This document shows positions 7,252 to 30,067 of a DNA stretch of 32,205 nt, in pieces (the stretch's first letter is position 1; the number at the start of each line of letters is the position of its first letter). The notes below the pieces were generated by a model. That model had not been told where the DNA came from and did not search any database. It worked only from the letters and a program-made list of their open reading frames with translations. Where the stretch lies: sequence record SRR20825006_2856; one strand, written 5' to 3'. The position numbers were made by a program, and so were the translations under genes.

Positions 7252-7259
7252 TACCTTTG
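7252..7259 (+). promoter_or_regulatory. Bacteroidota sigma-70 -7 element (TACCTTTG) for the metal-efflux cluster
   Basis: Exact match to TAnnTTTG, 9 nt before ATG 7269. No clean -33 TTTG seen. Confidence 0.65.
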
Positions 7260-7268
7260 CAAATCAAG

Positions 7269-7694: not shown

Positions 7695-7695
7695 T

Positions 7696-7898: not shown

Positions 7899-7905
7899 CA
7901 TTTTT

Positions 7906-12866: not shown

Positions 12867-12870
12867 AACC

Positions 12871-13476
12871 ATGAAAAAGACCTTAAATTTTATAAGTATA
12901 GCCGTAGTAGCCTTAAGCTTAGTTTCCTGCGGAAATGATAAAAAATCAAGCTCAGAGACAGATGTCAAATTAGAAACCCACGAAGAAAAACCTATGCAAA
13001 TGGAAGAAGTTGATGAAATGGGCGAAAAAAATAAAGCTTCGGAAGAAGCACAGGAGAACAAAATTGACAATGCGCCGCTTGCCTTTGCAGATAACAATTC
13101 CAATGCCGTTTGGGAAGCTTATGCCAAAGTTCAGCAGGCTTTAGTTGCTAGTGATTCAGAAAAAGCAAAACAAGAAGCAGCCCAACTTGCTATGATTTTT
13201 GACGAAAGAAATGCAAAACTCAAGACTTTGGCTGAAGGAATAGCCACGACTGATGAATTGCCGGCACAGCGCAAGGCGTTTGCAGCATTCTCTACGGGAG
13301 CAAAAGCCTATTTTAAAAGTACCATTAAGGCAGGAACACTGTACGTGCAGCATTGCCCGATGGCTTTTGATGGAAAAGGAGCCGACTGGCTAGCTAAAGA
13401 TACCGCAGTGACCAATCCGTATTTTGGAGCTAAAATGCTCAATTGCGGTTCAGTGACGGCAACAATAACTCAGTAA
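12871..13476 (+). CDS. DUF3347-type lipoprotein, putative metal-binding protein
   Basis: Lipobox LVSC, His/Met-rich linker, C-terminal HCPMA...WL...NPYFG.KML.CG. Confidence 0.82.
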   Translation: MKKTLNFISIAVVALSLVSCGNDKKSSSETDVKLETHEEKPMQMEEVDEMGEKNKASEEAQENKIDNAPLAFADNNSNAVWEAYAKVQQALVASDSEKAKQEAAQLAMIFDERNAKLKTLAEGIATTDELPAQRKAFAAFSTGAKAYFKSTIKAGTLYVQHCPMAFDGKGADWLAKDTAVTNPYFGAKMLNCGSVTATITQ

Positions 13477-13485
13477 ACTGGTACT

Positions 13486-14706
13486 ATGACAGACTTTTTA
13501 AAACAATGGGGCGAAGCGGCTTATACCACTGCGGGATTCTTCTGGATGGCGCTGTGGGCATTTGCACTGGGCTACATCATAAGCAGTATGATTCAGATTT
13601 TTGTTACCGAAAAGCGTATGCAAAAAACCATGGGCGGCGACGAGACTAAAGGCGTCTTGCTAGGAACCTTTTTTGGGTTTATCAGCAGTTCGTGCAGTTT
13701 TGCAGCGCTTGCTTCGACAAAATCGTTGTTTAAAAAAGGAGCGAGTTTTGTAGCCAGTATCGCCTTCTTACTGGCTTCAACCAATTTGGTCATCGAACTT
13801 GGGATCATTATTTCCATTTTTTTGGGTTGGCAATTTGTGGTGGGTGAGTATGTAGGTGGCGTGTTACTCATTTTACTCAGTTGGATTTTGATCAGATTGA
13901 TCAATCCTAAAAAGTTGATTGAGAATGCCCGAAAAAATCTAGGCGAGAAAGAGGGCGATACGGATGCAGATTCCAAATCTTGGAAGCAGAAAATGAAATC
14001 TGAAGAAAGTTGGGCAAAAGTGGCCAAACAGTACGGGATGGAATGGAAAATGGTCTGGAAAGACGTGACCGTAGGCTTCACCATCGCGGGTATCGTAGCT
14101 GCTTTTGTGCCTGATGCGTGGTTTCAGACGCTATTTATAGGTTCGGGAGACGGAAATACAGACTTTAGTTTTCTCGAGATTTTAGAACATATTATAGTGG
14201 GGCCGGTCGCTGCATTCATCACTTTTATAGGTTCTATGGGTAACATTCCGCTTGCGGCTTTGCTGTTTGGTAAAGGCGTAAGTTTTGCCGGTGTGATGGC
14301 ATTTATTTTCAGTGATCTGGTGGTGTTTCCTATTTTGAGAATTAACGCTAAGTATTATGGTTGGAAGATGTCTCTATTCATCCTGTTTTTACTGTTCACT
14401 TCCTTAGTGGGCGCATCGCTACTGTTGCATTACGGTTTTGAAGCTTTTCAATTACTTCCTGATCCGAGTCAGGTGAAAGTTCAAGACACTTCTTATTTTA
14501 AACTGAATTATACCTTTTTCTTGAATCTGGCTTTTCTGGCAGGTTCGGGTTACCTCCTCTACCTAGGCTTTTTTAAACATAAAGATATGATGCATATGAA
14601 AGAAATGGCGCCCAAAAGCAAAACCTTAGAGCGCACCTTAAAATATGCAACTTTAGGTTGTTATGTGTGGCTAACCGCAGGTTTATTGATCAAGTTTTTT
14701 AACTAA
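13486..14706 (+). CDS. Predicted permease (DUF318/ArsP-like)
   Basis: Many TM segments, SSCSFAA and FLLASTNL motifs, HKDMMHMKEM near the C-terminus. Confidence 0.78.
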   Translation: MTDFLKQWGEAAYTTAGFFWMALWAFALGYIISSMIQIFVTEKRMQKTMGGDETKGVLLGTFFGFISSSCSFAALASTKSLFKKGASFVASIAFLLASTNLVIELGIIISIFLGWQFVVGEYVGGVLLILLSWILIRLINPKKLIENARKNLGEKEGDTDADSKSWKQKMKSEESWAKVAKQYGMEWKMVWKDVTVGFTIAGIVAAFVPDAWFQTLFIGSGDGNTDFSFLEILEHIIVGPVAAFITFIGSMGNIPLAALLFGKGVSFAGVMAFIFSDLVVFPILRINAKYYGWKMSLFILFLLFTSLVGASLLLHYGFEAFQLLPDPSQVKVQDTSYFKLNYTFFLNLAFLAGSGYLLYLGFFKHKDMMHMKEMAPKSKTLERTLKYATLGCYVWLTAGLLIKFFN

Positions 14707-14747
14707 AGCCAATGACATAGCTATAATCAAATCTTAATATTCAAATA

Positions 14748-15479
14748 ATGACACATACTTATAAAATTACAGGAATGACGTGTGAAGGATGCAGATCTGG
14801 CGTTGAGGCTAAATTGAATGCCGTGCCCGATGTAGATCACGTCGAAGTCGATTTAAATAATGGTGAAGCTCAGATCACGATGCATAAGCATATTGCTACG
14901 GAAACTCTTCAACAAGCCTTACCTTCAAAATATAAGATCTCAGAAACGGGAAATCATGCACAGCCAAAATCAAATGTGTTTATAAATTCAACTGCTGAAA
15001 CATCACAGAGCAAAATTCAGCAACTTAAACCTTTGTTTTTAATTTTTGCTTTCTTGATCGCTGCAGCAGTTTTATTGCATAAAGACACTTGGGACTGGCA
15101 GGCGATGATGCTCGATTTTATGGGATTGTTTTACATCGTATTCAGCTTTTTTAAATTGTTAGACCTTAAAGGTTTCCCGGCGAGCTTTAGCATGTATGAT
15201 CCCTTGGCTAAGGCGATCCCGGTCTACGGTTGGGTGTATCCGTTTATCGAATTGGCACTGGGCCTATGCTTTTTAATGCGGTTTCAGATTACCGTTGCAC
15301 TTATAGTGACCTTAGTCATTTTAGGCATTACCACAATTGGCGTTACACGCACGTTGTTGGACAAAAAAGCGATTACCTGCGCTTGTCTAGGCACTGCTTT
15401 AAAACTGCCTATGACCGAAGCTACTTTTATCGAAAATGCATTAATGATCATAATGGCTCTGGTGATGCTGTTAATTTAA
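14748..15479 (+). CDS. HMA domain fused to MauE/DoxX-like membrane domain
   Basis: GMTCEGC HMA motif at the N-terminus. C-terminal TM bundle with YPFIEL and CACLG. Confidence 0.85.
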   Translation: MTHTYKITGMTCEGCRSGVEAKLNAVPDVDHVEVDLNNGEAQITMHKHIATETLQQALPSKYKISETGNHAQPKSNVFINSTAETSQSKIQQLKPLFLIFAFLIAAAVLLHKDTWDWQAMMLDFMGLFYIVFSFFKLLDLKGFPASFSMYDPLAKAIPVYGWVYPFIELALGLCFLMRFQITVALIVTLVILGITTIGVTRTLLDKKAITCACLGTALKLPMTEATFIENALMIIMALVMLLI

Positions 15480-15489
15480 AACCTACTTT

Positions 15490-17190
15490 ATGAAAAAGAT
15501 TGTAGCATTCAGTTTAACGGCATTGGTTCTTGGTTTGGCGCTTGGGTATCTTCTTTTTAATACATCGGAAGAAGCGAAAGAAGTACCTACGCACGAGCAT
15601 AGTGAGGATACTGCGCTTTGGACCTGCTCTATGCATCCTCAAATCTTGCGAAATGAACCCGGAGATTGTCCCATTTGTGGGATGGATTTGATTCCGGCAC
15701 AACAAGAAAACACTAGTTTAGCAGTCAATCAATTCAGAATGACTGAGCGTGCGATCGCTCTGGCGGATATTCAGACGACCGTTGTGGGCAATTCAGGAGA
15801 AATAACCTCTGAATTGAAATTATCAGGAACCATAGCCATAAATGATGATCAAGTGGCCACGCAGCCGGCACATTTTGACGGTAGAGTAGAGCGTTTGATG
15901 GTAACTTCTGTGGGGCAACAAGTGCGTAGAGGCCAGCAAGTGGCGACTATCTATTCGCCCGAACTGGTCGCTGCACAGCAAGAATTGGTAACCGCGGCAA
16001 AACTTAAAGATAAACAGCCAAAACTCTATGAGGCGGTGCGCAACAAGTTTAAAAACTGGATGATCTCTGATGCACTTTTAGATGAAATTGAAACTACCGG
16101 AAATACGGTGACGCGTTTTCCAATCTATGCGCACGTTGCGGGAGTCGTGCGTGAATTGATGGTAAGCGAAGGTGCGCATATTATGGACGGCAATCCTATA
16201 TTTAAAGTAGCCAATCTGAATACGGTTTGGGCCGAATTTGACGCGTATGAGCATCAGATCAATCAGCTTAAAATTGGTCAGGATTTAGAGATCACTACAA
16301 ATGCTTATCCAGATCAGCGATTTAATGCCAAGATCTCTTACATAGATCCTGTGCTCAATAGTGCGACCCGAACGGTGACGGTACGGGCTACCTTGACGAA
16401 TCCCCAAGAAGTATTAAAACCCGGAATGTTTATTGAAACTAAACTGATGGGAAGCACTTCTGAAGCGAGCACGATCACAGTACCGGCTTCGGCGGTGTTG
16501 TGGACGGGTGATCGCTCGCTGGTATATGTGAAACCTAAAAGTGACCAATCGGTTTTTGAAATGCGAGAAGTTACCTTAGGAACCAAATCTAGAGATTATT
16601 ATGAAGTTCTAAACGGATTGTCGCCCGGCACCGAAATTGTTACCAATGGCACGTTTACCGTTGACGCTGCTGCTCAGCTTAGCGGCAAAAAATCAATGAT
16701 GCATCAAGGTACCGGTTTTGAATTACAAGAAACAGAGTCCAATTTTCTGTTATCTGAAGCATTTCAGAAGGAATTAAATGCGGTGTTGCCATCCTATTTT
16801 GCACTGAAGGATGCTTTTGTAGCATCAGATGAGCAAGAGGTGCAAAAAGCATCAGAAACCTTCAAAGAGAACATCGAAGTCTTAAAAGTAGACGATTCTT
16901 CAACCGAAGTTCAGAGACTACTGGCTACTGTTCTAGAACAAGCGGCGAAAATTTCAAATAGTTCCGCTTTAGCAGAGCAACGCGAAAACTTTATTAATTT
17001 GAATGTGCATTTTACTCCATTGGTACAGAACAGTACAGCGATAAAGCCTTACCTGTTTGTGCAGCGCTGCCCAATGGCCAACAATAGTCAAGGAGCCATT
17101 TGGTTAAGCAATTCTGATGAAATTAAAAATCCGTATTACGGCGAAGCGATGCTCACCTGTGGAAGCACCATTGATACTCTGGGAGATTAA
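15490..17190 (+). CDS. cusB: CusB-family RND periplasmic adaptor with N-terminal heavy-metal-binding domain and C-terminal DUF3347
   Basis: WTCSMHPQI...PGDCPICGMDL, IYSPELVAAQQE, TRTVTVRA, LKPGMF. C-terminal RCPMA...NPYYG.AML.CG. Confidence 0.88.
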   Translation: MKKIVAFSLTALVLGLALGYLLFNTSEEAKEVPTHEHSEDTALWTCSMHPQILRNEPGDCPICGMDLIPAQQENTSLAVNQFRMTERAIALADIQTTVVGNSGEITSELKLSGTIAINDDQVATQPAHFDGRVERLMVTSVGQQVRRGQQVATIYSPELVAAQQELVTAAKLKDKQPKLYEAVRNKFKNWMISDALLDEIETTGNTVTRFPIYAHVAGVVRELMVSEGAHIMDGNPIFKVANLNTVWAEFDAYEHQINQLKIGQDLEITTNAYPDQRFNAKISYIDPVLNSATRTVTVRATLTNPQEVLKPGMFIETKLMGSTSEASTITVPASAVLWTGDRSLVYVKPKSDQSVFEMREVTLGTKSRDYYEVLNGLSPGTEIVTNGTFTVDAAAQLSGKKSMMHQGTGFELQETESNFLLSEAFQKELNAVLPSYFALKDAFVASDEQEVQKASETFKENIEVLKVDDSSTEVQRLLATVLEQAAKISNSSALAEQRENFINLNVHFTPLVQNSTAIKPYLFVQRCPMANNSQGAIWLSNSDEIKNPYYGEAMLTCGSTIDTLGD

Positions 17191-17433
17191 GAACTGAGTT
17201 ATTTCCTTAATAATTATTGAAGTTTTTAGCATTTAATTCCTTCAGAACATATCGTTTAACTTTTTGAATTAGAAATAATTATGTGATCAGAGTTTGGTTT
17301 GGATTTTGTAATAATTTGTAGAGAAGCTTAGGTAAAACGAAATAAGATTGTATTTTAACCGCTTTAGCAAAAAAACAACGTTTTAGAAAATCAAAAATAT
17401 ACAGTTTAGACTGCCCCAACTGCACACAGTACT

Positions 17434-18510
17434 ATGACCACATACAGCGTAATTACCGGAACCGGAATTTATTTACCAAAGAAAAAAGTAAGCAACGATG
17501 ACTTCTTAGATTTTGCTTTTTACGAATCTAACGGAACACCCATTGCAAAAGATAATCGGTATGTGGTAGATAAATTTAAAGAGATCACCACGATTGAAGA
17601 GCGCCGTTATGTAGCCGATGATTTGGTCGCTTCTGATATCGCGTATTTTGCTGCAAAAGATGCGATCAAAGATGCGCAACTTGATCCTGAGACACTGGAT
17701 TATATTATTGTTGCTCATAATTTTGGAGACGTTAAACACGGTTCAAACCGAAGCGATATGGTGCCGGCTCTGGCTGCTAGGGTCAAGCATAAATTAAAAA
17801 TCAAGAATCCGGAGTGTGTGGCTTATGACGTGCCCTTTGGTTGTCCCGGCTGGTTACAAGGGATGATCCAGGCTGATTATTATATTAAATCAGGCGACGC
17901 TAAAAAAATTCTGGTCATTGGAACCGAAACCTTATCTAGGGTTATTGATTTACACGATAGAGACAGTATGATCTATGCTGATGGGGCAGGAGCGACTATT
18001 CTAGAAAGCAGAGAAGCTGATCAGCGCATCGGAATTTTAGCACATAAAACCCGTTCAGACACGTATCGTTATGCCGAAATGCTTACGATGGGATGTTCTT
18101 ATAATATTACCGAAGAAAATAAGCAGGATCTTTATTTAAAAATGAACGGAAGACGTTTATATCAGTATGCGTTAGAAACGGTACCACTTTCTATCAAAGC
18201 TTGTTTAGATAAAGCCGAAGTGCCGATCGAAAAGGTAAAGAAAGTGTTGATACATCAAGCAAACGGCAAAATGGACGATGCGATCATAGACCGACTGTAT
18301 AAACTATACGGATATGAAGAAGCACCAGAAGGCATAATGCCGATGATCATTTCGTGGTTAGGGAATTCTTCTGTAGCCACCGTACCTACCTTACTGGACT
18401 TAATTTTAAAAAATAAAGTGGAAGGCCACAGCATAGAAGCCGGGGACCTAGTAGTTTTTGCTTCGGTAGGAGCGGGAATGAATATTAATGCTGCGGTTTA
18501 CCAATTTTAG
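17434..18510 (+). CDS. fabH: 3-oxoacyl-ACP synthase III (FabH family)
   Basis: Catalytic Cys-His-Asn in FGCPG, HQAN, GNSS. Also ADGAGA and SVGAGM. May be a paralog rather than the primary FabH. Confidence 0.88.
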   Translation: MTTYSVITGTGIYLPKKKVSNDDFLDFAFYESNGTPIAKDNRYVVDKFKEITTIEERRYVADDLVASDIAYFAAKDAIKDAQLDPETLDYIIVAHNFGDVKHGSNRSDMVPALAARVKHKLKIKNPECVAYDVPFGCPGWLQGMIQADYYIKSGDAKKILVIGTETLSRVIDLHDRDSMIYADGAGATILESREADQRIGILAHKTRSDTYRYAEMLTMGCSYNITEENKQDLYLKMNGRRLYQYALETVPLSIKACLDKAEVPIEKVKKVLIHQANGKMDDAIIDRLYKLYGYEEAPEGIMPMIISWLGNSSVATVPTLLDLILKNKVEGHSIEAGDLVVFASVGAGMNINAAVYQF

Positions 18511-18638
18511 AATGTTTTTGTTTGACGGTGTAAGTGCTTGATTGTTATAATTTTGCGCACTTTGTTGAATTTTTAGATTTAATTAATATTATTATTGATA
18601 ATACTTTTCATAATTAAATCTTAAACATTAACATTTAA

Positions 18639-18670
18639 TTGCAAATTTTAGGTTAAAAACCTTACTTTTG
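18639..18670 (+). promoter_or_regulatory. Bacteroidota sigma-70 promoter for the cheBR-bphP operon
   Basis: TTG at 18639-18641, 21-nt spacer, TACTTTTG at 18663-18670 (TAnnTTTG). Confidence 0.65.
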
Positions 18671-18741
18671 AGAGACTAGGCTCACTGTTATTATTATAAG
18701 CAATAATGCTTTTGTGAGTGCTTAACCTCTAAAAAGATTTT

Positions 18742-21700
18742 GTGACTACAAATACAAAAACTAACAAAGCAACTCACGTAATCGTAGGAATAGGAGCAAG
18801 TGCAGGTGGCCTGCAAGCGCTCAATGACTTTTTTGATAATGTTCCTACGGCATCACTATACAGTTATATTGTGGTGCAACACCTTTCTCCAGACCATAAA
18901 AGCTTGATGGCAGAGCTTTTAGGAAAAAATACTAAAATTCCTATAGAGGTTATTGAAGATGAAGGTGAGATTAAAGCCAATTGTATTTATCTGATTCCGC
19001 CCACTAATAATTTGGTGATTAAAGACGGAAAATTCAGACTTTTAGAAAAACCTAAAGATAAATCGCTTAACCTGCCTATAGACCTCTTTTTTGAGTCGCT
19101 CGCTAATCATTCTAAAGAACATTGCGCCGGGATCATTTTAAGCGGAACGGGAAGCGACGGTTCACGCGGAATTAGAGCCATTAAAGAGAAGGGTGGTGTG
19201 GTTATGGTACAACAACCTGAGCAGGCCAAATTTGATGGTATGCCACGTAACGCCATAAAAACAGGTCTTGCAGATTTTATCGTTCCGGTGGAACGTATAA
19301 GTGACGAACTTTCCAATTATTTTGAAGCGCAAAGCAGTATTGACTTTGACGCTGAACTTTACCAATACGATGAGCGTCTTTTAAAAGAGATTTTAAAAGT
19401 GCTTAAAACCAATACCGCACTCGATTTTAGTCTTTACAAACGCCCAACCCTGCTGCGCCGCATTGGTAGACGGGTACGTGTGCTCAAGCTCGATTCACTT
19501 GAAGGTTATTTTGAATATTTGAAGACCAATAAAGAAGAGGTTCAAACGCTATACAAAGAATTTTTGATAGGGGTGACCAAGTTTTTTAGAGATTATAAAG
19601 TTTGGGAGCTTCTGGCAGAAGATATTATTCCTGAAATGGTTGCTTCTAAAGATGATGGCGATGTGATCAAGGTTTGGGATGTAGGGTGTAGCACAGGAGA
19701 GGAGCCGTTTTCTTTGGGGATTTTGTTTTTAGAGGAAATCGAAAAACAAGACAAAGATGTTTCGCTTAAGATCTTTGCAACAGATATTTCTCAAGATCAT
19801 TTAGATATTGCCAGTCGCGGAAGCTATTCAGAAAATGTATTGAGCGATCTTTCTAAGGATCGTCTCAAAAAATATTTTAGAAAGCACGGAGACGATTTTG
19901 TAGTAAAAGATAATTTAAGAAAATGCATTATTTTTTCTAATCACGATATCACTAACGATCCGCCATTTAAAAATATGGATGTGGTGATGTGTCGTAATCT
20001 TTTGATCTATCTTCAAAACGATGTGCAAACTAAAGTCATTCATCTGCTGCATTATGCATTGAAACAAGATGGTATTTTGACTTTAGGCTCCAGCGAATCT
20101 CTGGGTGTGCATAAAGATAATTTTGAGGAAATCAATAGAAAGTGGAATATCTACAGAAATATAGAAAGTTCTGAGCGTTTAAAAACCGAAATATTGAATT
20201 CTACGGCAGAACGTCAAACGTTTAAACGTCACGAAAACGGAATGAAAAACGGAAACGTGCAAAATTACAGCAACACGCAACGCCTGAAAGAAGAGATCAG
20301 TAAGGCGATCATTCAGCAGTATGGGGCTGCAAGTGTGTATATTGATGAGAACTTCCAGATTTTGGAAGCTATGGGCGCATTTAAAAAGTACGCCCAATTA
20401 CCCGAAGAAGGTTTTACAACAAACCTTATTGATATGCTACCGGAAGAACTCGCCGGACCCATTAAAAACACTGTGAATAAAGCCAAAAGAAAGCGCTCAC
20501 AAATCTTGTATAAAGACGTGGAGGTTTATGGGGATGATGAAGAATTACAAACCCGTCTTGATGTTTTAGTTAAGCCTATTAAAAACGGAGTCGCAGAAGG
20601 CGATTTTCATTTTATCATTACGCTCATTGAGCAAGACCGTGAGCACAACAAAGCGATTATCGTTGAGCGCGCTGATATTCACAAATCGTCTCAAGAACGC
20701 ATAAGAGATCTTGAGGAAGAGCTAAAAGAGACACAATACGAGCTGAGTAATGCGCTTGAAGAAGCAGAAACCAGCAACGAAGAATTACAGGCGTCAAATG
20801 AAGAACTTCTAGCGTCTAATGAAGAGCTGCAAAGCACCAATGAAGAATTGCAAAGTGTAAATGAAGAGTTACACACCGTAAATGCTGAGCATATTGAAAA
20901 GATGGAAGATCTGGCGATGCTTAATGCGGATATGGATAATCTTCTTGATAGTACCCGTATTGGTACAGTTTTCTTAGATAAAAATTTAATTATCAGGAAA
21001 TTCACTCCGGCAATCCGGGAGCATTTCCATTTGGTAAAGCAAGATATTGGGCGATCCATTGAGAATTTCGTGGCGAATTTTGGGATTCGTAAACGCAAAA
21101 CTATTGTTGATAATTCTAAAACTGTAATGGAAACCGGTCAGGTTTTTGAAAAGCGTATCAAGAGTAAATCAGGGCGCTATTTTCTACAGCGTATTTCGCC
21201 ATTTCATACCGGTCAGGATAAAATTGATGGGGTGGTCATCACCTTTATTGATATTCATAAGGTCGAACAATCACAGGAGCGTTTACGTAAAAGTGAAGAG
21301 AAATTCAAAGCTTTTTATGAGGATGATCCGGTGATGCACGTTACGATCAATTCGCATACAGGTCTGATCACTGAGTGCAATAAGCTTTTTGTAGAGACTT
21401 TAGGCTTCAAAGAGAAAAATGAAGTTATTGGCAAATCTATCTTTGAGTTTTATCCGAAGCGTACGAAGGTAAAAGCAATTGCTTTGTTAGACGAACTCGA
21501 AAAATCGGGTAGTATCGCTAATGAAGAATTAACGTTGGAGTGTGTTGATGGAGATAAAGTAGATGTGCTGTTTAATGCAGAGTTGATGACCACAACTTCT
21601 GCGAAAGATACCACCCAATGGCGTTGCACGCTGATGGAGATCACAGATCTTAAAAATGCCCAGCAAGAGTTGCAAAAGCAAAAAGAAGACCTAGAACGCA

Positions 21701-22368
21701 TCAATACAGATCTAGAACAATTTGTTTCGATTTGTTCGCATGACCTTCAAGAACCGCTTTCGACTATTAGATTCAGTAGTGATTTTCTTTCGAAGAAATT
21801 CAGTAGTGAATTGAGTGAAAAAGGTAAAGAATATCTAGGTTATATTCATGAAGCTTCCGGGCGTATGGCAGAGCAGATTAAAGCGCTGCTAGAACATAGC
21901 CGCATTGGGGAAGACCTTAAGAAAACTAAAGTAGATGTAGCCGAATTACTCGAGGTGGTAAAATACGATCTCAACCGAAGCATTCGGGAAGCGAACGCAA
22001 CCGTAACCGTGGGTAAAATGCCACAAATGATGGCCTACGAAACCGAATTGCGTTTATTGTTTCAGAATTTGATCAGTAATGCTTTAAAATACCGAAAGAA
22101 AGACACCAACCCAAGTATTCGAATCTCAACGTTCTCTGATGATGAGTACCAGACCTTTGCTATTGCAGATAATGGAATAGGAATTAAAGAAGATGATCTT
22201 GAGGCGATCTTTAAGATTTTTGGACGTGTTCCTACCGAAGAAAAATACGACGGCACCGGTGTAGGTTTAGCGCATTGTAAAAAGATCGTAAAACTGCACG
22301 AAGGTAAAATCTGGGTAGATTCAGAGTTTGGTCAAGGAAGTACGTTCTATTTCAAAATTAAAAAATAA
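18742..22368 (+). CDS. CheB methylesterase-CheR methyltransferase-coiled coil-PAS-histidine kinase fusion (GTG start)
   Basis: CheB triad GASAGG/VQHL/GSDG. CheR VTKFFRD, GCSTGEE, ATDI, CRNLLIY. NEELQS heptads, PAS domains, H-box SHDLQEPL, NLISNALKY, DNGIG, GTGVGL. Confidence 0.93.
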   Translation: MTTNTKTNKATHVIVGIGASAGGLQALNDFFDNVPTASLYSYIVVQHLSPDHKSLMAELLGKNTKIPIEVIEDEGEIKANCIYLIPPTNNLVIKDGKFRLLEKPKDKSLNLPIDLFFESLANHSKEHCAGIILSGTGSDGSRGIRAIKEKGGVVMVQQPEQAKFDGMPRNAIKTGLADFIVPVERISDELSNYFEAQSSIDFDAELYQYDERLLKEILKVLKTNTALDFSLYKRPTLLRRIGRRVRVLKLDSLEGYFEYLKTNKEEVQTLYKEFLIGVTKFFRDYKVWELLAEDIIPEMVASKDDGDVIKVWDVGCSTGEEPFSLGILFLEEIEKQDKDVSLKIFATDISQDHLDIASRGSYSENVLSDLSKDRLKKYFRKHGDDFVVKDNLRKCIIFSNHDITNDPPFKNMDVVMCRNLLIYLQNDVQTKVIHLLHYALKQDGILTLGSSESLGVHKDNFEEINRKWNIYRNIESSERLKTEILNSTAERQTFKRHENGMKNGNVQNYSNTQRLKEEISKAIIQQYGAASVYIDENFQILEAMGAFKKYAQLPEEGFTTNLIDMLPEELAGPIKNTVNKAKRKRSQILYKDVEVYGDDEELQTRLDVLVKPIKNGVAEGDFHFIITLIEQDREHNKAIIVERADIHKSSQERIRDLEEELKETQYELSNALEEAETSNEELQASNEELLASNEELQSTNEELQSVNEELHTVNAEHIEKMEDLAMLNADMDNLLDSTRIGTVFLDKNLIIRKFTPAIREHFHLVKQDIGRSIENFVANFGIRKRKTIVDNSKTVMETGQVFEKRIKSKSGRYFLQRISPFHTGQDKIDGVVITFIDIHKVEQSQERLRKSEEKFKAFYEDDPVMHVTINSHTGLITECNKLFVETLGFKEKNEVIGKSIFEFYPKRTKVKAIALLDELEKSGSIANEELTLECVDGDKVDVLFNAELMTTTSAKDTTQWRCTLMEITDLKNAQQELQKQKEDLERINTDLEQFVSICSHDLQEPLSTIRFSSDFLSKKFSSELSEKGKEYLGYIHEASGRMAEQIKALLEHSRIGEDLKKTKVDVAELLEVVKYDLNRSIREANATVTVGKMPQMMAYETELRLLFQNLISNALKYRKKDTNPSIRISTFSDDEYQTFAIADNGIGIKEDDLEAIFKIFGRVPTEEKYDGTGVGLAHCKKIVKLHEGKIWVDSEFGQGSTFYFKIKK
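20776..20880 (+). repeat. Five imperfect in-frame 21-bp repeats encoding NEELxxx heptads
   Basis: NEELQAS NEELLAS NEELQST NEELQSV NEELHTV, each unit starting AAYGAAGAR. Confidence 0.9.
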
Positions 22369-22370
22369 CT

Positions 22371-24581
22371 ATGGCTCACGGTCCGACGTCACTATATCCC
22401 AAAGAAGTTACTTTAACCAATTGCGACAGAGAACCCATTCACATTTTAGGTAAAATTCAAAATCACGGGTATCTTATTGCTTGTGATGCCTCCTCACATA
22501 TCGTAAATTACTGTAGCGATAATATTGCTCAGATTCTTGGCAAAGGCCCCGAAGCGCTTTTAGGTCAACCTTTAAAAGCGGTTTTTGATGAGGTGCAAAC
22601 GCAGCAGCTTTTAGAGACTAAAGTCGCTGAGAAAGCAACGCCTATACATACGACAATAGATGGTCAACAATATGCGATGTTAGCTCACCTTAATGAAGGC
22701 AATCTCGTCATAGAATTTGAGCCTCTGGAAGTTGATGCCAATGCTTTTGAATACCAAAATCAATTGGCAGAGATCGTAAGTAAACTTAACGGAGCGGGCG
22801 AGGAGCAACGTATGTGCGATGTCACTGCAGATTTAATCAAAGAGTTTTTTGGGTACGACCGGGTGATGATCTATCGGTTTGATGAGAATTGGGACGGAAT
22901 CGTGGTTTCTGAAGCTCGCGAATCGTATTTAGAAAGCTGGTTAGGTTTACGATATCCGGCGTCAGATATTCCGCAGCAAGCGCGTAAATTATTTCTAAAA
23001 CAAGGGGTACGTATCATTGCAGATGTAAAGAGTACGCCGGTAAGCATACAAGCTTTAGGTGGAAAAGAGCAAGAAAACCCTATTGATCTATCATTGAGCG
23101 AAACTAGGGCCTCGTCACCAATTCACATTGAATATTTAGAAAATATGAATGTTGGGGCTTCGCTAACCGCAGCTATAATCTCAAAAGGAACGTTATGGGG
23201 CTTGATCGCTTGCCATCATTACTCACCTAAGTTCGTTGACTTTTATAAGCGCCAATCCTGTAAATTTTTAACACAAATATTTTCTAGTCAGCTGGTGCTA
23301 CTTTCTTCAAATATCCTTTTACAAAAGGTAAATGAAGCCTCAAAAACGCGTAGTCTTTTGATGGAAAAGATCACCAAAAACTGGAATGTTCATAAAGGCC
23401 TGACCAAAGGATCACATACGATGCTTGATCTTACTCAGGCTCACGGTGCGGCTGTTTTTTTAGACGGAAAGCTTAAAAGAGTAGGCATCACTCCTGATAA
23501 AGAACAGATACTAGCACTGATAAACCGTCTAAAACCTCTTGAGCAGGATGAGATAATCACAACACAGTTAACAAAAGACCTTCCGGAATTACAGGATTTA
23601 AAAGCGAAAGCTTCTGGGGTGATGTGTTTGTTTTTATCTAATCTTAAAAAGGATGCGATCCTTTGGTTCAAATCAGAAAAAATAGAGACCGTCAATTGGG
23701 CCGGGAATCCTGATAAACTAAGTACGCTAGATAGCAACGAACGCTTAACACCGCGAAAATCATTCGAAGCCTGGTCAATACAAGAAGAAGGTAAATCGGC
23801 TCCTTGGGAAGATTATGAGATCGTTGCTGCACGAGCGCTAAAGCAGGATATTTCTCAAATAATTCTTGAGAAATATGATGAGATAAAGGGCTTACACAAT
23901 CTACTCCAGATCGCTTATGAAGACCTGGAAACCTTCAGTTATAGTGTAGCGCACGATTTGAGAGCGCCTTTACGCGGGATTGATGGTTTTGCACACATCA
24001 TCAAGGAAGACTATTTTGAGCAGCTTGATGAATTTGGTAAGAGTTCCATTGATACGATCATAGGTTCGGCGACTAAGATGAATCAGTTAATTGATGATAT
24101 TTTAGCGTTCTCGATGGTGTCACAATCTGAGATGAATAAAGATAAATTCTCGATGAACAAGCTCGTTGACGACGTGCTTGGTATTTTGCCTATTTTGCAA
24201 GATTATCCTTCGGTTTCGATTACTGTGGCACCGCAAATGCCTCAAGCCTATGGAGATCGTAAAATGATCGCTCAAGTGCTTCAGAATTTATTGACGAATG
24301 CATTAAAATATACGAGAGCGGTTGAGCAGCCTCAAATAGCCATCGGTTTTAAAGAGCATCAGAATAAAGGATTTTATTTTGTACAGGATAATGGTATTGG
24401 GTTTGATCAAAGCCACGAGAAGCGTATTTTTAGACTCTTTAACCGGTTGGTAGGAGACGAGTACGAAGGCTCAGGAATTGGTCTCACTATTGCTAAGCGC
24501 ATTATAAAAAAACATAAGGGTGCTATAGCGGTGATTAGCAAGCCGGGTGAAGGAAGTACATTTTTATTTAATTTAGGTTAA
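22371..24581 (+). CDS. bphP: Bacteriophytochrome histidine kinase (PAS-GAF-PHY-HK)
   Basis: NCDREPIH with Cys18, DRVMIYRF, YPASDIP, SPIHIEYL, LIACHH, WAG and PRKSF tongue motifs, H-box AHDLRAPL, DNGIG, GSGIGL. Confidence 0.96.
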   Translation: MAHGPTSLYPKEVTLTNCDREPIHILGKIQNHGYLIACDASSHIVNYCSDNIAQILGKGPEALLGQPLKAVFDEVQTQQLLETKVAEKATPIHTTIDGQQYAMLAHLNEGNLVIEFEPLEVDANAFEYQNQLAEIVSKLNGAGEEQRMCDVTADLIKEFFGYDRVMIYRFDENWDGIVVSEARESYLESWLGLRYPASDIPQQARKLFLKQGVRIIADVKSTPVSIQALGGKEQENPIDLSLSETRASSPIHIEYLENMNVGASLTAAIISKGTLWGLIACHHYSPKFVDFYKRQSCKFLTQIFSSQLVLLSSNILLQKVNEASKTRSLLMEKITKNWNVHKGLTKGSHTMLDLTQAHGAAVFLDGKLKRVGITPDKEQILALINRLKPLEQDEIITTQLTKDLPELQDLKAKASGVMCLFLSNLKKDAILWFKSEKIETVNWAGNPDKLSTLDSNERLTPRKSFEAWSIQEEGKSAPWEDYEIVAARALKQDISQIILEKYDEIKGLHNLLQIAYEDLETFSYSVAHDLRAPLRGIDGFAHIIKEDYFEQLDEFGKSSIDTIIGSATKMNQLIDDILAFSMVSQSEMNKDKFSMNKLVDDVLGILPILQDYPSVSITVAPQMPQAYGDRKMIAQVLQNLLTNALKYTRAVEQPQIAIGFKEHQNKGFYFVQDNGIGFDQSHEKRIFRLFNRLVGDEYEGSGIGLTIAKRIIKKHKGAIAVISKPGEGSTFLFNLG

Positions 24582-24591
24582 AATTTAATCC

Positions 24592-25002
24592 GTGGCAGAA
24601 GATTATATTTTATCGATAGAAGACAATAACACTGATATTGCTTTGATGAACAGGATATTTCAGAAGAATATTCCGCATTACGGCATTAAACACATCTCAG
24701 ATGGGCAGGAAGCGGTAGCTTTTTTAGAGTCTGAAGCATTTAGATTGCAGCAGCCAAAATTAGTGTTGCTGGATATCAAAGTACCTCGTTTAAACGGATT
24801 GCAGATTTTAAAAAAATTTAGAAAGATCGAGGCGTATTTAGGGATTCCGGTGGTAATGATGAGTTCGTCAGACCGGAAGGATGAAATAATAAAAGCGTAT
24901 AAATTTGGTGCGAATAGCTTTATTGAAAAACCGCGCACCTATCCCGAATTATCAAAGGCTTTACCGGCCTTGATTAACTATTGGATTGTTTACAATAAAT
25001 AA
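24592..25002 (+). CDS. Phytochrome-associated single-domain response regulator (Rcp1/BphR-like; GTG start)
   Basis: IEDN, LLDIKVP, MSSS, GANSFIEKP, C-terminal YW motif typical of phytochrome receivers; directly follows bphP. Confidence 0.9.
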   Translation: MAEDYILSIEDNNTDIALMNRIFQKNIPHYGIKHISDGQEAVAFLESEAFRLQQPKLVLLDIKVPRLNGLQILKKFRKIEAYLGIPVVMMSSSDRKDEIIKAYKFGANSFIEKPRTYPELSKALPALINYWIVYNK

Positions 25003-25003
25003 T

Positions 25004-25600
25004 ATGATCACAGAAGAATTAAAAATTTTAATGGTTGAGGATAATCCCGCCGATGTGACGCTCCTGAGGCGAGAGATCTTTAAAGTGGCAGAAAATGCTG
25101 AGGTGATTGTATGCAACAACCTAACAGATTTTAGACTGAATCTGGTTAATAATCCGCCAGATCTGATTATATCAGATTACAATCTGCCTACGTGTTCTGG
25201 TTTAGAAATTTTAGAAGTTGCCCAAAGGCTGACCCCGTCGGTAACCTTTTTATTCATCACCGGTACCATTAACGATGAGGAGCTTGCCGCTGATACCATT
25301 CTCAGTGGAGCATCTGGTTATATGCTGAAAAAGAATATCAGCAAATTGCATATTCGCCTGGAGCCTTATCTCAATGCCATATCTAAAAATGGCCCAATGA
25401 TGCATCCGGTGCGTAAAAAAATAGTAGAGAGTAAAAAACTCGTACGCGATATTGAAGTTTTTTTGGAGAATTTTTCTCGTGAAAATATGTCGCATCGCGA
25501 AGGAATGCTCAAAATTCAAGAAGACCTTAAACGCCTAAAATCAGGATATGATTTTAAAACACTTAAAGACCCAAACAGCAACTTTACACCAGAAGACTGA
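25004..25600 (+). CDS. Response regulator with short helical C-terminal tail of unknown function
   Basis: MVEDNPAD, ISDYNLP, FITGT, GYMLK. ATG 25004 lies 1 nt after the previous stop. Confidence 0.85.
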   Translation: MITEELKILMVEDNPADVTLLRREIFKVAENAEVIVCNNLTDFRLNLVNNPPDLIISDYNLPTCSGLEILEVAQRLTPSVTFLFITGTINDEELAADTILSGASGYMLKKNISKLHIRLEPYLNAISKNGPMMHPVRKKIVESKKLVRDIEVFLENFSRENMSHREGMLKIQEDLKRLKSGYDFKTLKDPNSNFTPED

Positions 25601-26114
25601 AGAAGATAATCTTGCAAAATTTATTCTCGATCACAGTATTGACGTTGCTACATACACCCGATTACTTCAACAAAATTACCTGGCTTACGCCCGTATAGAT
25701 CGTATTTTAGAGGCTAATAGCGCTTCTTTAGATGAGAACTTAAAGGTGTACGCTGATGCGGCAAAAAGTAAAGCGCTAGCAAAAGATCTAACCGATCTGG
25801 ACACTGAAATTCCACAGGTTGAGTCAACTGCAGAACAGTTTAGTAGCGCTTATCTTTTAGGTTTGATCTATGTGGTTGAAGGTTCGATGATGGGAGGTTT
25901 GCTTATTAGAAAAAATCTTGAATCTTGTGAGCATCTTAAAGATAAAACAATGCATCATTTCTTCGGAAAATCAGCACCTGAGGTTATGCAACGCTGGAAG
26001 AATTTTACCGGTGCGGTAGAAGAGAAGACGTACTCTGAGCAAGAACATCAAGACGCGGTAGATGGTGCGCACGCAGCATTTATGATCTTTAAAGATTCTT
26101 ACAGCTACGCTTAG
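25548..26114 (+). CDS. bphO: Biliverdin-producing heme oxygenase
   Basis: LKTQTATLH (proximal His), YVVEGSMMGG distal helix, HFFG...W; located in a bacteriophytochrome operon. Confidence 0.9.
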   Translation: MILKHLKTQTATLHQKTEEDNLAKFILDHSIDVATYTRLLQQNYLAYARIDRILEANSASLDENLKVYADAAKSKALAKDLTDLDTEIPQVESTAEQFSSAYLLGLIYVVEGSMMGGLLIRKNLESCEHLKDKTMHHFFGKSAPEVMQRWKNFTGAVEEKTYSEQEHQDAVDGAHAAFMIFKDSYSYA

Positions 26115-27301
26115 ATTTTTTCGCAGTCAAGCATAAGGCTTTTACCATTTTCTAAAGTGGTAAAGAAAATATAGCGATCACCACCGCTTTTAATTTTAAA
26201 CTTTTTCCGTAAATCGGCCACAGAAGCTTTAAAATTACGCGTGGTAATATGCGCTTGTTTTCCTTTAAGCAACTGACTAATAGTCTTTTTTGAATACGGA
26301 ATACTGTCTTTGATTTTAAATCGCCTGCCCGGAAAGTCGATCAATTTTTCTGAAGTATAGAGCTGTGTGTTGGCAGCTAATTTATCTAACTTGTAATGCT
26401 CAGAAATCCAATTAAAGGCTCCCAGCTTAAGCAAAGCTGCATTGGGTTCATAGAGGTAGGTTTGTGGCTCATCAAAGGTGGCTTCAGCAAATTGTAAGGC
26501 GTCGAAATCCAAAGTTACCGGAACATCAAAATCACTCGAGAGATTTACAGCAAAAAGGCTTAAAGCTTTAGTATCATCTTTTTTCGATAGTATCCACAAT
26601 AACTCTTTGACCTCATTTTTAAACGCAATGCTGTGAATTTGTACAACATGTTTCAGTTCACGTAACCCGGCGGTGATATCCAACAACGGACTCGTTTTAA
26701 CCATTAGAATATCGGTTTTATCTAATAGCAAGTCCAGGTATTCAGGGATATTGGGTTCGCAATCCTTCAGCATAAAAACTTTTCCTTTTACCTCATTTCT
26801 ACGCGATGGATCTGTAAAGATCAGATCAAAATGAGAAGAAGTACCTTTTAAAAAGTCAATGCTATTTTGATGGTGCGTTTGTATATTCTTTACGCCTAAT
26901 ACTTCAAAATTATGCTGTGCCAGCGCACTGAGTTCAGGATTCAATTCGCAATGGATTACTTCGTCAAATTGCCGACTGAAAAAATAATCATCAATGCCAA
27001 AGCCACCCGTAAGATCTAAAGCTTTCTTTCCGGAAAATAGACTTGCTTTATACGCTGCAGTTTCTTCTGATGAAGTCTGTTCTAAATTGAGTTTTGGAGG
27101 GTAGAGTATTTCAGGATGCTTAAACCACGTAGGAAGTTTGCCTTCAGCTTTTTGTAATCCAACAAGTTGCTGAGCCAGTTCAGGACTGCTTATGGCCTCA
27201 AAAGGTGAGGAGCTTAATAAAACTTTAGAAACATCTGTTTTATAATGCGCTCTCAGGTATGCTTGAACTTCGGGCTGAAGCAAATTTTTATTAAGGCTCA
27301 T
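26111..27301 (-). CDS. Class I SAM-dependent methyltransferase with C-terminal THUMP-like domain
   Basis: EQTSSE, LDLTGGFGID SAM motif, DPSRR, KTSPLLD, YEPNAALLK, FPGRRF. Confidence 0.85.
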   Translation of the reverse strand: MSLNKNLLQPEVQAYLRAHYKTDVSKVLLSSSPFEAISSPELAQQLVGLQKAEGKLPTWFKHPEILYPPKLNLEQTSSEETAAYKASLFSGKKALDLTGGFGIDDYFFSRQFDEVIHCELNPELSALAQHNFEVLGVKNIQTHHQNSIDFLKGTSSHFDLIFTDPSRRNEVKGKVFMLKDCEPNIPEYLDLLLDKTDILMVKTSPLLDITAGLRELKHVVQIHSIAFKNEVKELLWILSKKDDTKALSLFAVNLSSDFDVPVTLDFDALQFAEATFDEPQTYLYEPNAALLKLGAFNWISEHYKLDKLAANTQLYTSEKLIDFPGRRFKIKDSIPYSKKTISQLLKGKQAHITTRNFKASVADLRKKFKIKSGGDRYIFFTTLENGKSLMLDCEKI

Positions 27302-28394
27302 ACAGGTTTTTAGTAAGCTTTTGTACGATCTTATATTCTGAGAGAAACTCTTTTGCGATTACTTTAATCGCTGTGTAGGCAGGAATGGCAACCACCATCC
27401 CAAAAATACCAAAGATCAAACCTGCAATGACAATCACCAGAAAGATCTCTAAAGGATGTGACTTTACGCTGCTCCCGAAAATTAAAGGCTGATTGATAAA
27501 ATTATCGATCAATTGCGCAATACAGTACCCTATAAACACATAGATCATTTTAGGCAGAATCACCGTTTGAAAGTCGGCAGTAAAATTTCCGCTTATTACA
27601 AGCAGCATCATCACCACGCCGCCAACAACCGGACCAATATAAGGAACCACATTGAGCATTGCGCAAAACAGCGCTATAGCAAAGGCATTAGGTATTTGAA
27701 AGCTAACCAGTAAAATAGCATAGATGGTAAAGAGAATCATCAATTGCAGTAAAATTCCTAAGAAATAGCGCGAAAGCAACTGTTTGGTTTTATGAAAAAC
27801 AATACGGAATCTTTTTTCCTCACCGGTATTGGCAAACACGAGAAAACTGTCTAAGAGCAGGTGACTGTCTTTCAGCAAGAAGAATGAAATGAAGATTACC
27901 GAAAGTAAGCCCACAATTAACGAACTGAAATTACCCAGTATGCTATTGATAAATGTCGGAATCACCGAAATATCAAAATTCTTTATAAAGTCAGATTGTT
28001 TTAAACCTTCTATTAGTGTTACCTGGTCAACACCCATCGCTCGGCTGAATTCAACATTAAGTCGGTTGATGTTGTGTTTTACTTCTTCAAAATTGATTTT
28101 ACTAATATGCTCACTTTGATCAATTAAAATAGGAATAAACAATGCGAGAATCCCCGATATTACAATGAGCACCATAATGAGAGTAGCTATTGCGGCTGCA
28201 ACGGCGCTAAAGCGACACTTGTTTTTTAAGAAATTCACCACCGGTCTTCCTATCAAAGAAATGACCGCAGCAATACAGATAAATACAAGTACTGCCTGAA
28301 TTTTATACAAAAACCATAGTATAAATACAATTCCGGCGATGATCCCCAAGGCTCTGAGAATGCCGTATGCAATGACTTTAGATTTATCTTTCAT
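27291..28394 (-). CDS. AI-2E (PerM/UPF0118) family transporter
   Basis: Multi-TM; NVVPYIGP, QLIDN...QP, HPLEI motifs. Start 28394 preferred (28406 possible). Confidence 0.9.
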   Translation of the reverse strand: MKDKSKVIAYGILRALGIIAGIVFILWFLYKIQAVLVFICIAAVISLIGRPVVNFLKNKCRFSAVAAAIATLIMVLIVISGILALFIPILIDQSEHISKINFEEVKHNINRLNVEFSRAMGVDQVTLIEGLKQSDFIKNFDISVIPTFINSILGNFSSLIVGLLSVIFISFFLLKDSHLLLDSFLVFANTGEEKRFRIVFHKTKQLLSRYFLGILLQLMILFTIYAILLVSFQIPNAFAIALFCAMLNVVPYIGPVVGGVVMMLLVISGNFTADFQTVILPKMIYVFIGYCIAQLIDNFINQPLIFGSSVKSHPLEIFLVIVIAGLIFGIFGMVVAIPAYTAIKVIAKEFLSEYKIVQKLTKNLYEP

Positions 28395-28905
28395 GTTTCG
28401 GGGCATTTAATAATTGGTATGCGGCGATGGCGGCAGCTTGGCTCACGTTCATACTGCTGTTTTTGCCGTGCATCGGGATATAGGTTAAATAGTCTAACTG
28501 CTCTAAAATACGCTGGTCAATTCCGTGCCGTTCATTGCCTAAAACTAAGGCTATTTTTTCAAATGCTTGATGTTTAAATGTTTCCAGCGGAATACTTTGT
28601 GTGGTCAGTTCGAGACCGATACACGAAAAACCTTCATTCTTTAATTGCAAAAGAAGGGTTTCAGCGTCTTCAACGGCGGTGTATGCAATCTGCTTTTCAC
28701 TGGAGCGTGCAGTGCGCTTGAGACGGGTGCTCTCAAAATTAAGACTTGCCTGGCAAAAATAAATATGCTGAATGCCTAAAGCATCTGCAAGCCGAAAAAG
28801 ACTTCCTGCATTTGCCGGACTATTCACGCGATCACAGACCAGTACAAAAGGTAATGGTTGTGGTGCTATTTGCGTCTCTTCGTGATTGAGTTGTTTAGTT
28901 TTCAA
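28384..28905 (-). CDS. TrmH/SpoU family RNA methyltransferase (TTG start)
   Basis: PANAGSLFRLA, LVLGNERHG, IPMHG.NSSMNVS SPOUT motifs. Confidence 0.9.
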   Translation of the reverse strand: MKTKQLNHEETQIAPQPLPFVLVCDRVNSPANAGSLFRLADALGIQHIYFCQASLNFESTRLKRTARSSEKQIAYTAVEDAETLLLQLKNEGFSCIGLELTTQSIPLETFKHQAFEKIALVLGNERHGIDQRILEQLDYLTYIPMHGKNSSMNVSQAAAIAAYQLLNAPKHER

Positions 28906-29548
28906 AGGCGTATTTTATAATATTAGCGCCCATTTTTAAAGCTTTTTCACGAACTTCAGGAGGATCGTTATGAACAGCCGGACTTTCCCAACCATCACCT
29001 AAATCACTTTCTTTTGTGTATAGGATGATCAGGCGTCCTTCTTTAAACAACCCGAATGCCTGAGGTCTTAATCCATCGTGTTCGTGAATTTTGGGTAATC
29101 CCTGTGGAAAAGCAAAAGCACTTGAAAACACAGGGTGGTCTGCCGGCAACTCGATCAATTCTTCCTGCGGATATAATTTTTTAAGTTGAGGTCGCAAGTA
29201 TTCATCTATGCCGTAATTATCGTCTATGTGTAAAAAGCCGCCACTGTTTAAGTAGTCTCTTAAATTGCGTAGCGCATCTTCAGAAAAATAAACATTACCG
29301 TGCCCGGTCATATGCACAAAAGGATATTGCATAATGGCAGGATCTGTGGCTTTAATTGTTGCTATATTAGGGTCAATGGCTGTATGAATAAAAGTATTGC
29401 AAAATTGAGCTAGATTGGGCAACGAGGTAGGATTAGCATACCAGTCGCCGCCGCCTTCGTATTGCAATACCGCTATTTTTTGAGCACAAAGCACATGAGA
29501 TCCTGTGAATAGCAGTGTTAATAAAGAGCAAAGCCAAAGCTTAATCAC
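28895..29548 (-). CDS. DUF4159 domain exported protein (GTG start)
   Basis: Signal peptide, GGGDWY, YPFVHMTGHG, GGFLHIDD, SDLGDGWE, MGANI. Confidence 0.82.
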   Translation of the reverse strand: MIKLWLCSLLTLLFTGSHVLCAQKIAVLQYEGGGDWYANPTSLPNLAQFCNTFIHTAIDPNIATIKATDPAIMQYPFVHMTGHGNVYFSEDALRNLRDYLNSGGFLHIDDNYGIDEYLRPQLKKLYPQEELIELPADHPVFSSAFAFPQGLPKIHEHDGLRPQAFGLFKEGRLIILYTKESDLGDGWESPAVHNDPPEVREKALKMGANIIKYAFEN

Positions 29549-29680
29549 GTAGTTTTAGTTTTTTAAATTGAAAACGAAAATACTTATTTTCTAGCCAACG
29601 CACTATTTTTTAAAATTTCATTAGGGCTTGGTGAGCATAAAAGTTAAAACGATAATAACCCCTTTCAAAAAATAAGGTTT

Positions 29681-30067
29681 ATGAGTGCCTCTAATTCTGA
29701 TTATCTCGCTCAGATCATACCTATTCTTCCAGTAAAAGATGTGCTGGAAGCCTTAGAATTCTACATCAAAAAACTTGGTTTTGAATTGGTTTTTATTGAT
29801 GAAGAACGCCAGCCCCGTTATGCGGGTATTCGGCGCAATAACATCGCGCTGCATCTGCAATGGCACGAAGCTTCAGAATGGGAGCAGGACAAAAACAGAC
29901 CTATGTTGCGCATTCAGGTGCAAGGTATTGAAAGCCTTTACAAGAAGTACCAGCTTATGGGTGTATTTCACAACCATACTTCGCTTGAAGAAAAGCCTTG
30001 GGGTACTTTAGAATTTGCCTTTTACGATCCGTTTAAAAACGGTCTGATCTTTTATGCCGAAGCTTAA
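29681..30067 (+). CDS. VOC/glyoxalase/bleomycin-resistance family protein
   Basis: PILPVKD...FY...LGF and PWGTLEFAFYDPFKN patterns. Confidence 0.85.
   Translation: MSASNSDYLAQIIPILPVKDVLEALEFYIKKLGFELVFIDEERQPRYAGIRRNNIALHLQWHEASEWEQDKNRPMLRIQVQGIESLYKKYQLMGVFHNHTSLEEKPWGTLEFAFYDPFKNGLIFYAEA

Follow-up and report, generated by a model that had tools for sequence, protein, structure and literature searches.

The window considered here, a stretch of 32,205 nucleotides of sequence record SRR20825006_2856, contains five genes at positions 18,742 to 26,114 in which a kinase carrying the chemotaxis adaptation enzymes CheB and CheR stands immediately upstream of a bacteriophytochrome (BphP), two receivers (R1 and R2) and a heme oxygenase (BphO). 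The first gene is a MAC1 (methyl-accepting coiled-coil) kinase with the order CheB-CheR-PAS-helix-PAS-PAS-HK (histidine kinase), and not an orphan chemotaxis enzyme. Both parts of the operon are of known kinds; what appears to be new is their conserved pairing. As to what the pairing does, the reading placed first here, tentatively, is that light feeds into a self-methylating MAC1, probably via direct contact, with methylation acting as adaptation. Positions 14000–30000 of the window are matched over their whole length, at 96%, by the nearest genome (G001), and the window BphP shares 97% identity with its counterpart in a named Leeuwenhoekiella palythoae record, such that the source is placed by sequence in the genus Leeuwenhoekiella, among the marine Flavobacteriaceae. 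An earlier note on this DNA had described the five genes, their spacing and their domains, together with the H-boxes SHDLQEPL and AHDLRAPL. Open reading frame (ORF) calls and Pfam bear this description out: all five ORFs are on the plus strand, in the order MAC1, bphP, R1, R2, bphO, with gaps of 2, 10, 1 and −53 nucleotides, and both H-boxes are present.

Conservation was assessed in a family sample of 401 genomes, 31 with a PHY domain and 76 with a CheB domain; the 100 stretches annotated comprise all 31 PHY sites and every CheB site except one sub-threshold match. The order MAC1>bphP>(R1)>R2>bphO occurs in 19 of the 31 PHY-bearing genomes, from 12 genera. In another set, of 19 loci, all ten that belong to Leeuwenhoekiella have the five-gene order (one is cut by a contig end). 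In five further genomes of the 31 MAC1 is adjacent in another layout, three of these having an HWE-type or broken phytochrome, and in the other seven it is not nearby, four of them lacking any CheB match. R2 is present in 19/19 cassettes and accompanies 30/30 BphPs of the window's clade, and R1 is present in six of the 19; R2 is the constant receiver of the cassette and R1 an accessory one. Trees of MAC1 (a quick IQ-TREE run) and of BphP (FastTree) agree in dividing the cassette into an R1-bearing and an R1-less subclade, which argues that it is inherited as a unit. Five split or partial loci (L058, L151, L153, L154, L179) were left out of the BphP tree, where the label ‘none’ on L144 is an artefact, its contig ending inside the upstream kinase; three named loci duplicating others were dropped from trees and tallies alike. 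The adjacency of the two kinases, which the earlier note had left to a synteny check, is therefore conserved. PHY and CheB occur together in 27 genomes, where 5.9 would be expected, but kinship among the genomes inflates this figure, to which no statistical weight is given here.

The adjacency also survives exchange of the kinase, since in two genomes, G250 and G199, BphPs of this clade have as neighbours MAC1s that belong to two other clades. In G250 an in-frame stop separates CheR from the remainder of MAC1 (446 + 753 residues; L055:9960-13565), and in G365 and G152 (L057, L058) the HWE-type phytochrome gene next to an intact MAC1 is in pieces. Three conserved genes upstream of another MAC1 clade were dropped on account of their housekeeping-like N-termini.

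By Pfam, the first gene comprises CheB, CheR_N, CheR, PAS_10, PAS, HisKA and HATPase_c, such that CheB and CheR are fused in one chain with a kinase output, and the chain includes a receptor-like coiled coil with conserved glutamate pairs. Of 90 fused relatives, 88 share S20, 88 share H47 and 83 share D139, which together form the putative CheB triad; R283 and D348 of CheR are kept in 90/90, and the CheR model matches solved CheR with an E value of 2e-20. The coiled coil contains five near-invariant NEEL heptads, and the glutamates in them (E680/E681, E687/E688, E694/E695, E701/E702 and E708/E709), each identical in 85–89 of the 90 relatives, are likely in-cis methylation sites, as predicted from sequence. 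The AlphaFold model covers residues 9–850, and its domain packing is unreliable at a predicted local distance difference test score (pLDDT) of 78 and a predicted template modelling score of 0.48. The PAS-like domain that it places before the helix, PAS_A, is a candidate docking or sensing domain; among solved structures there was no sequence match to the PAS_A-helix-PAS_B part. Separately, C998, the cysteine two residues before the phospho-accepting histidine, is kept in 32/33 clade members and could be a redox-sensitive site.

The earlier note had observed that no chemoreceptor lies in the window, and the same is seen at the level of genomes. The nearest genome, 99% complete, has no match to MCPsignal (PF00015) or CheW (PF01584), and the CheA-dimer domain (PF02895) has no match in any of the five genomes tested, this one included; in other words, none of MCP, CheW and CheA, the core of a canonical chemosensory pathway, is matched in the nearest genome. 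MAC1 itself needs no chemoreceptor, because it carries its own methyl-accepting-type helix, and, given these absences, the simplest substrate of its CheR and CheB would be that helix. The methylation-tuned signal of the earlier note is in this regard half right: a methylation-tuned element is likely, but the helix within the kinase had been missed.

BphP combines PAS-GAF-PHY, with an N-terminal Cys (C18), DIP (D199), H252 and PRxSF (R462), with a HisKA-CA part in which the phospho-accepting H528 is followed by Asp at H+1, Ala at H+4 and Arg at H+7, and it matches solved full-length phytochrome kinases with an E value of 1.8e-121. It is a bacteriophytochrome histidine kinase, for which biliverdin binding and photoconversion are predicted. 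The BphO heme oxygenase is the biliverdin supply. Bathy phytochromes tend, not exclusively, to have Gln at PASDIP-3, Gly at PRXSF-8, Arg at PRXSF-3 and an HWE kinase (PMC12362586, excerpt); only one of these four non-exclusive markers, Arg at PRXSF-3, is found in BphP, which has Leu at PASDIP-3, no Gly at PRXSF-8 and a HisKA rather than an HWE kinase, and which is more likely prototypical, with Pr as its resting state, than bathy. R1 is an Rcp1-like receiver, its best solved matches being phytochrome receivers such as RcpA and Rcp1. R2 is modelled as a receiver (Rec) followed by long helices with no output domain, and its best match, by NCBIfam and by fold, is the Rec-helix part of LvrB, of whose Rec-helix-DHp-CA order it has Rec and helix only. 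The R2 tail was considered as a cryptic phospho-histidine domain and rejected, the candidate position being H, Q, E or Y. Since the BphP DHp is unchanged where R1 is absent, R2 is likely to be the constant partner of BphP. R2 has no effector domain, and the sequence does not reveal a physiological output.

Evidence for a tie between light and MAC1 comes from lineages in which the phytochrome has no output of its own. In a phylum-level sample of 401 Bacteroidota genomes, 24 with a PHY match, 20 new PHY genomes were searched, 18 of which have CheB and eight a long fused CheB; both phytochromes found beside a fused CheB are output-less, at 497 and 486 residues. Among 251 Pseudomonadota genomes, 33 have PHY, ten of these with a MAC1 helix-PAS match, and the single case of adjacency consists of MAC1 and GGDEF-EAL ORFs, then an output-less phytochrome, then bphO. 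Output-less phytochromes adjoin MAC1 in G460, G592 and G803. A metagenome scan was made with three output-less phytochromes as queries, and the best 80 of 325 relatives were analysed, a query-biased set drawn mostly from one clade: once 15 partial or unclassified loci had been dropped, it held 52 output-less phytochromes and 13 with an output. A CheB/CheR protein lies near 33 of the 52 output-less phytochromes (21/23 where at least 4 kb is available on both sides), as against none of the 13 with their own output (0/4 well-flanked). Typically these loci read MAC1-GGDEF-EAL > photosensory module > bphO, and the unit contains neither kinase nor receiver. What is common to all versions is therefore the photosensory module together with the N-terminal part of MAC1, and not a phosphorelay.

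In the MAC1 tree, the members that adjoin a phytochrome are dispersed, well-supported branches forcing at least eight label changes, and the approximately unbiased (AU) test rejects a single clade of phytochrome-linked MAC1s (p 0.0002); as losses inside one clade would give the same result, this is weak evidence for independent origins. Some individual loci may also be recorded. MAC1-GGDEF-EAL > output-less phytochrome > heme oxygenase recurs at L185, L192, L196, L198, L208 and others; in G592 (L178:4296-10888) MAC1 ends after its PAS domains, the phytochrome is also output-less and a lone receiver follows; and in G738 (L159) two full-length phytochrome kinases stand in tandem around one Rcp1-like receiver.

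The output-less phytochromes adjoining MAC1, mostly with GGDEF-EAL and with no kinase or receiver, suggest the reading in which light feeds into MAC1. The five genes would be a co-transcribed and co-inherited light-signalling unit with the phytochrome as input to a self-adapting MAC1. BphO would make biliverdin, and BphP would sense red/far-red light and, as an ordinary kinase, phosphorylate R2, plus R1 where present. BphP would also control MAC1, most likely through its photosensory module touching the N-terminal CheB-CheR-PAS-helix-PAS part, and the CheR and CheB of MAC1 would methylate and demethylate the glutamate pairs in its own helix, resetting the output kinase in steady light, such that MAC1 would report changes in light and not its level. 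MAC1 probably passes its phosphoryl group to a protein other than R1, perhaps one encoded elsewhere. If this is true, one photoreceptor would have two outputs here, a level-reporting path from BphP to R2 and a change-reporting MAC1. A wider proposal, held with more reserve, is that MAC1s are soluble phytochrome transducers, assembled several times and comparable to the Htr partner of sensory rhodopsin, which combine light-dependent binding of a photosensory module to their N-terminal part and CheR/CheB methylation of the helix with interchangeable outputs, a kinase here and GGDEF-EAL in other lineages.

Several observations weigh against light feeding into MAC1. The strict methylation consensus of methyl-accepting chemotaxis proteins (MCPs), [ASTG][ASTG]x(2)[EQ][EQ]x(2)[ASTG][ASTG] (PMC6391922, excerpt), has no match in MAC1; three heptads fit a one-residue-spacer variant, which amounts to five of the six constrained positions. 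Linkage is uncommon outside the family, a long fused CheB adjoining the phytochrome in two of the eight further Bacteroidota PHY genomes and MAC1 being adjacent in one of the ten Pseudomonadota genomes with both, and the metagenome counts carry the query bias given above. The BphP clade of the window does not group with the output-less phytochromes. BphP does not need MAC1 as an output, since its own kinase and receivers are intact. In G011 and G354 this MAC1 clade and R2 are kept and bphP is gone, and in six of 27 genomes (G016, G090, G104, G275, G327, G014) this MAC1 clade is kept with neither a bphP nor an R2 ortholog, its DHp surface unchanged. A search for a MAC1 domain relaxed after loss of bphP found none, such that no BphP-specific surface on MAC1 is located. 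Finally, some other kinase lies within the fetched 20 kb at 14 of 25 phylum-level phytochrome loci; in other words, clustering with a kinase is in itself common.

The persistence of MAC1 alone in six genomes and the frequency of kinase genes near phytochromes speak equally for a rival reading, possible but given somewhat less weight, in which the two pathways run in parallel. MAC1 would self-methylate, sense a signal of its own through a PAS domain and phosphorylate a receiver encoded elsewhere, bphP-R2-bphO would be a standard light module, and the operon would be kept since both are needed under the same conditions. Consistent with this, BphP-R1-R2-bphO stands without MAC1 in G208 and G082, and the two kinases differ at the DHp positions after the HDLxxPL core, which set partner specificity. 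Thus H+7 is S/A/G in 33/33 MAC1s and R in 30/30 BphPs, H+8 is T in MAC1s and G in BphPs, and H+11 is F in MAC1s and G in 29/30 BphPs. Parallel pathways leave unexplained, however, why output-less phytochromes, unable to signal alone, stand beside MAC1 at 21/23 well-flanked loci, and why other MAC1 clades replace this one beside the same BphP clade.

A less probable course is that the two kinases meet at R2. BphP would phosphorylate R2, and MAC1 would act as a methylation-tuned phosphatase or second kinase; alternatively, phosphorylated R2 would bind MAC1 in place of the receiver domain absent from its CheB. R2 is present in every cassette and stays with MAC1 where bphP is gone (G011, G354) and with BphP where MAC1 is absent (G208, G082). 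A dedicated single-domain receiver, co-oriented and directly downstream, is found in 12/14 related MAC1 kinases of the YxxSHDL[QK]EPL[RN]T type, and never in this clade. H+4 is Glu in 33/33 MAC1s and A/G/S in 30/30 BphPs, the Ala of the window BphP being as in the kinase-only Agp1, and Glu at this position is linked to the phosphatase activity of DrBphP (PMC8292422, excerpt). According to the same excerpt, however, H+4 is not the sole determinant, and Arg at H+7, which MAC1 lacks, is important for receiver binding in DrBphP. Moreover, the six genomes with MAC1 alone keep the same DHp without any R2, and the relatives with a GGDEF-EAL output have no receiver in their unit.

The convergence proposed in the earlier note, with both kinases phosphorylating the Rcp1-like R1, draws on the resemblance of R1 to RcpA and Rcp1 and on the HDLxxPL shared by both H-boxes. 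That core is generic, whereas the specificity positions H+7, H+8 and H+11 differ, and R1 is missing from 13/19 cassettes with the specificity residues of neither kinase altered; the pairing of MAC1 with a phytochrome in relatives whose unit has neither kinase nor receiver weakens the proposal further, and convergence on R1 is therefore improbable. Least credible of all is that CheR and CheB of MAC1 act in trans on chemoreceptors, their classical MCP substrates in textbooks, or on BphP, given the lack of MCPsignal, CheW and CheA-dimer matches described above and of any [EQ][EQ]xx[ASTG][ASTG] motif in the PHY-DHp linker of 70/70 BphPs, on which ground that linker was rejected as a methylation substrate.

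As to expression, the single candidate promoter of the earlier note gives way to two promoter-like boxes, both found with TTG-N~21-TAnnTTTG, which we take to be the Bacteroidota consensus (Table 1). The −7 box of the proximal site lies at about equal distance in other Leeuwenhoekiella loci, and a −7 box occurs within 250 nucleotides upstream in 16/26 cassette loci as against 6.2 expected from shuffles, the loci not being independent. A generic sigma-70 scan gave 26 matches as against 28.7 in shuffles, that is, no excess. The gap between MAC1 and bphP is −4 to +7 nucleotides in 23/26 loci; the remaining three read −41, which is attributed to first-start ORF calling. The −53 gap before bphO is real as an overlap, but it stems from a tail on R2, with pLDDT <50 in the model, that the R2 of L. 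blandensis (L137) does not have: there R2 is 185 residues long, the gap is +4 and bphO is equally long. RNA contigs from four metatranscriptome runs span all four junctions (MAC1/bphP in X1, X2 and X8, bphP/R1 in X2, R1/R2 and R2/bphO in X1); these contigs extend over the flanking genes too, DNA may be among them and a single transcript cannot be read from them, for which reason they are not counted as evidence of co-transcription.

Table 1. Coordinates of the operon and its parts in the window
Feature	Position	Strand	Basis and remarks
Distal promoter-like site, TTG...TAATTTTG	18522..18555	+	Consensus match only; also best sigma-70-like match
Proximal promoter-like site, TTG-N21-TACTTTTG	18639..18670	+	Consensus match only
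MAC1-type kinase, 1208 residues	18742..22368	+	CheB (without receiver domain)-CheR-PAS_A-methylation-type helix-PAS_B-PAS_C-DHp-CA
CheB methylesterase domain	18784..19311	+	Pfam; putative triad S20, H47, D139
CheR methyltransferase domain	19381..20145	+	Pfam; R283, D348, CRNLLIY motif
PAS_A, PAS-like fold (~residues 529-630)	20326..20631	+	AlphaFold secondary-structure pattern; missed by Pfam; just before helix
92-residue helix, residues 646-737	20677..20952	+	AlphaFold model; tandem N-E-E-L-x-[AS]-[ST] heptads
HisKA + HATPase_c of MAC1	21712..22362	+	H1000, H+1 Asp, H+4 Glu, without Arg at H+7, Cys at H-2
BphP bacteriophytochrome histidine kinase, 736 residues	22371..24581	+	Pfam PAS_2, GAF, PHY, HisKA, HATPase_c
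R1, Rcp1/RcpA-like single-domain receiver, 136 residues, D61	24592..25002	+	Pfam Response_reg
R2, LvrB-type receiver, 198 residues, D58	25004..25600	+	Pfam Response_reg; long C-terminal helix, without output domain; length counted from ATG 25004 (ORF finder start TTG 24986)
BphO heme oxygenase, 188 residues	25548..26114	+	Pfam Heme_oxygenase

Elsewhere in the window, a separate phosphorelay at 2468-7222 (+) consists of a multi-PAS hybrid kinase (1204 residues, two receiver domains), an Hpt protein (238 residues, with a weak receiver-like N-terminal part) and a single-domain receiver (122 residues). A heavy-metal efflux-type cluster follows at 7257-17190 (+), with an AcrB/CusA-type pump, an outer membrane factor, DUF3347, an ArsP permease, HMA-MauE and a CusB-like protein; a second, diverged partial copy of it lies on contig C12 of the nearest genome.

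For the MAC class, the conserved phytochrome partner may give a first usable input signal, and one that can be switched by light in the test tube, in named cultured Leeuwenhoekiella strains, such that the question of MAC self-methylation and adaptation becomes directly testable. Direct coupling would bring to phytochrome signalling a methylation-based adaptation that we have not found described, and would supply optogenetics with a red-light module that adapts. Should the genes share no more than their regulation, what is left is a conserved operon made of two familiar kinds of parts.

The MAC class is said to go back to Wuichet and Zhulin in 2010, its members being reportedly defined by computation as possible links between two-component and chemotaxis systems. 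MiST3 lists the MAC1 class (PMC6943060, excerpt), and a 2022 preprint states that MAC1 incorporates CheB and CheR and that MAC proteins are not experimentally characterised (bioRxiv 10.1101/2022.05.07.491037, excerpt); phytochromes are unmentioned in the MAC1 descriptions within these two excerpts. A literature search over mostly open main texts found no published pairing of MAC1 with a phytochrome. By term search, the main text of a review of phytochrome-interacting proteins contains no CheB, CheR or ‘methyl’ (PMC10813442), and excerpts of PMC3914696 and PMC2890560, where phytochromes or a CheB-CheR hybrid come up, draw no connection between the two.

Like the MAC1 class at large, the protein described here joins CheB, CheR, a receptor-like coiled coil and a kinase in a single polypeptide; unlike it in general, it belongs to a distinct clade with the H-box FVSICSHDLQEPL[SAG]TI[KR]F, lacks a dedicated receiver and has its fixed position at the head of a phytochrome operon. 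The remainder resembles the bphP-bphR-bphO operons (Agp1/AtRR1, DrBphP/DrRR, Cph1/Rcp1) in its PAS-GAF-PHY-HisKA protein with bilin Cys, DIP and PRxSF, its Rcp1-like receiver and its heme oxygenase, but differs in having MAC1 translationally coupled upstream, in treating the Rcp1-like receiver as optional and in that the receiver always present is of the LvrB type, a Rec followed by a helical tail. With respect to the LvrA-LvrB relay of Leptospira (PMC13269768, excerpt), the best or second-best NCBIfam match of both kinases is LvrA, far below cut-off, and R2 matches the Rec-helix part of LvrB; unlike LvrB, R2 ends after the helix, with no DHp-CA and no invariant His in its tail. As a working analogy only, with no sequence relation claimed, the proposed arrangement recalls the archaeal sensory rhodopsin-transducer complex NpSRII/NpHtrII, in which a photoreceptor is coupled to a separate protein that is reset by reversible methylation (PMC4651059, excerpt); here, by contrast, all is soluble, the methyl-accepting helix shares its chain with the methylation enzymes and the output, and CheA and CheW are absent.

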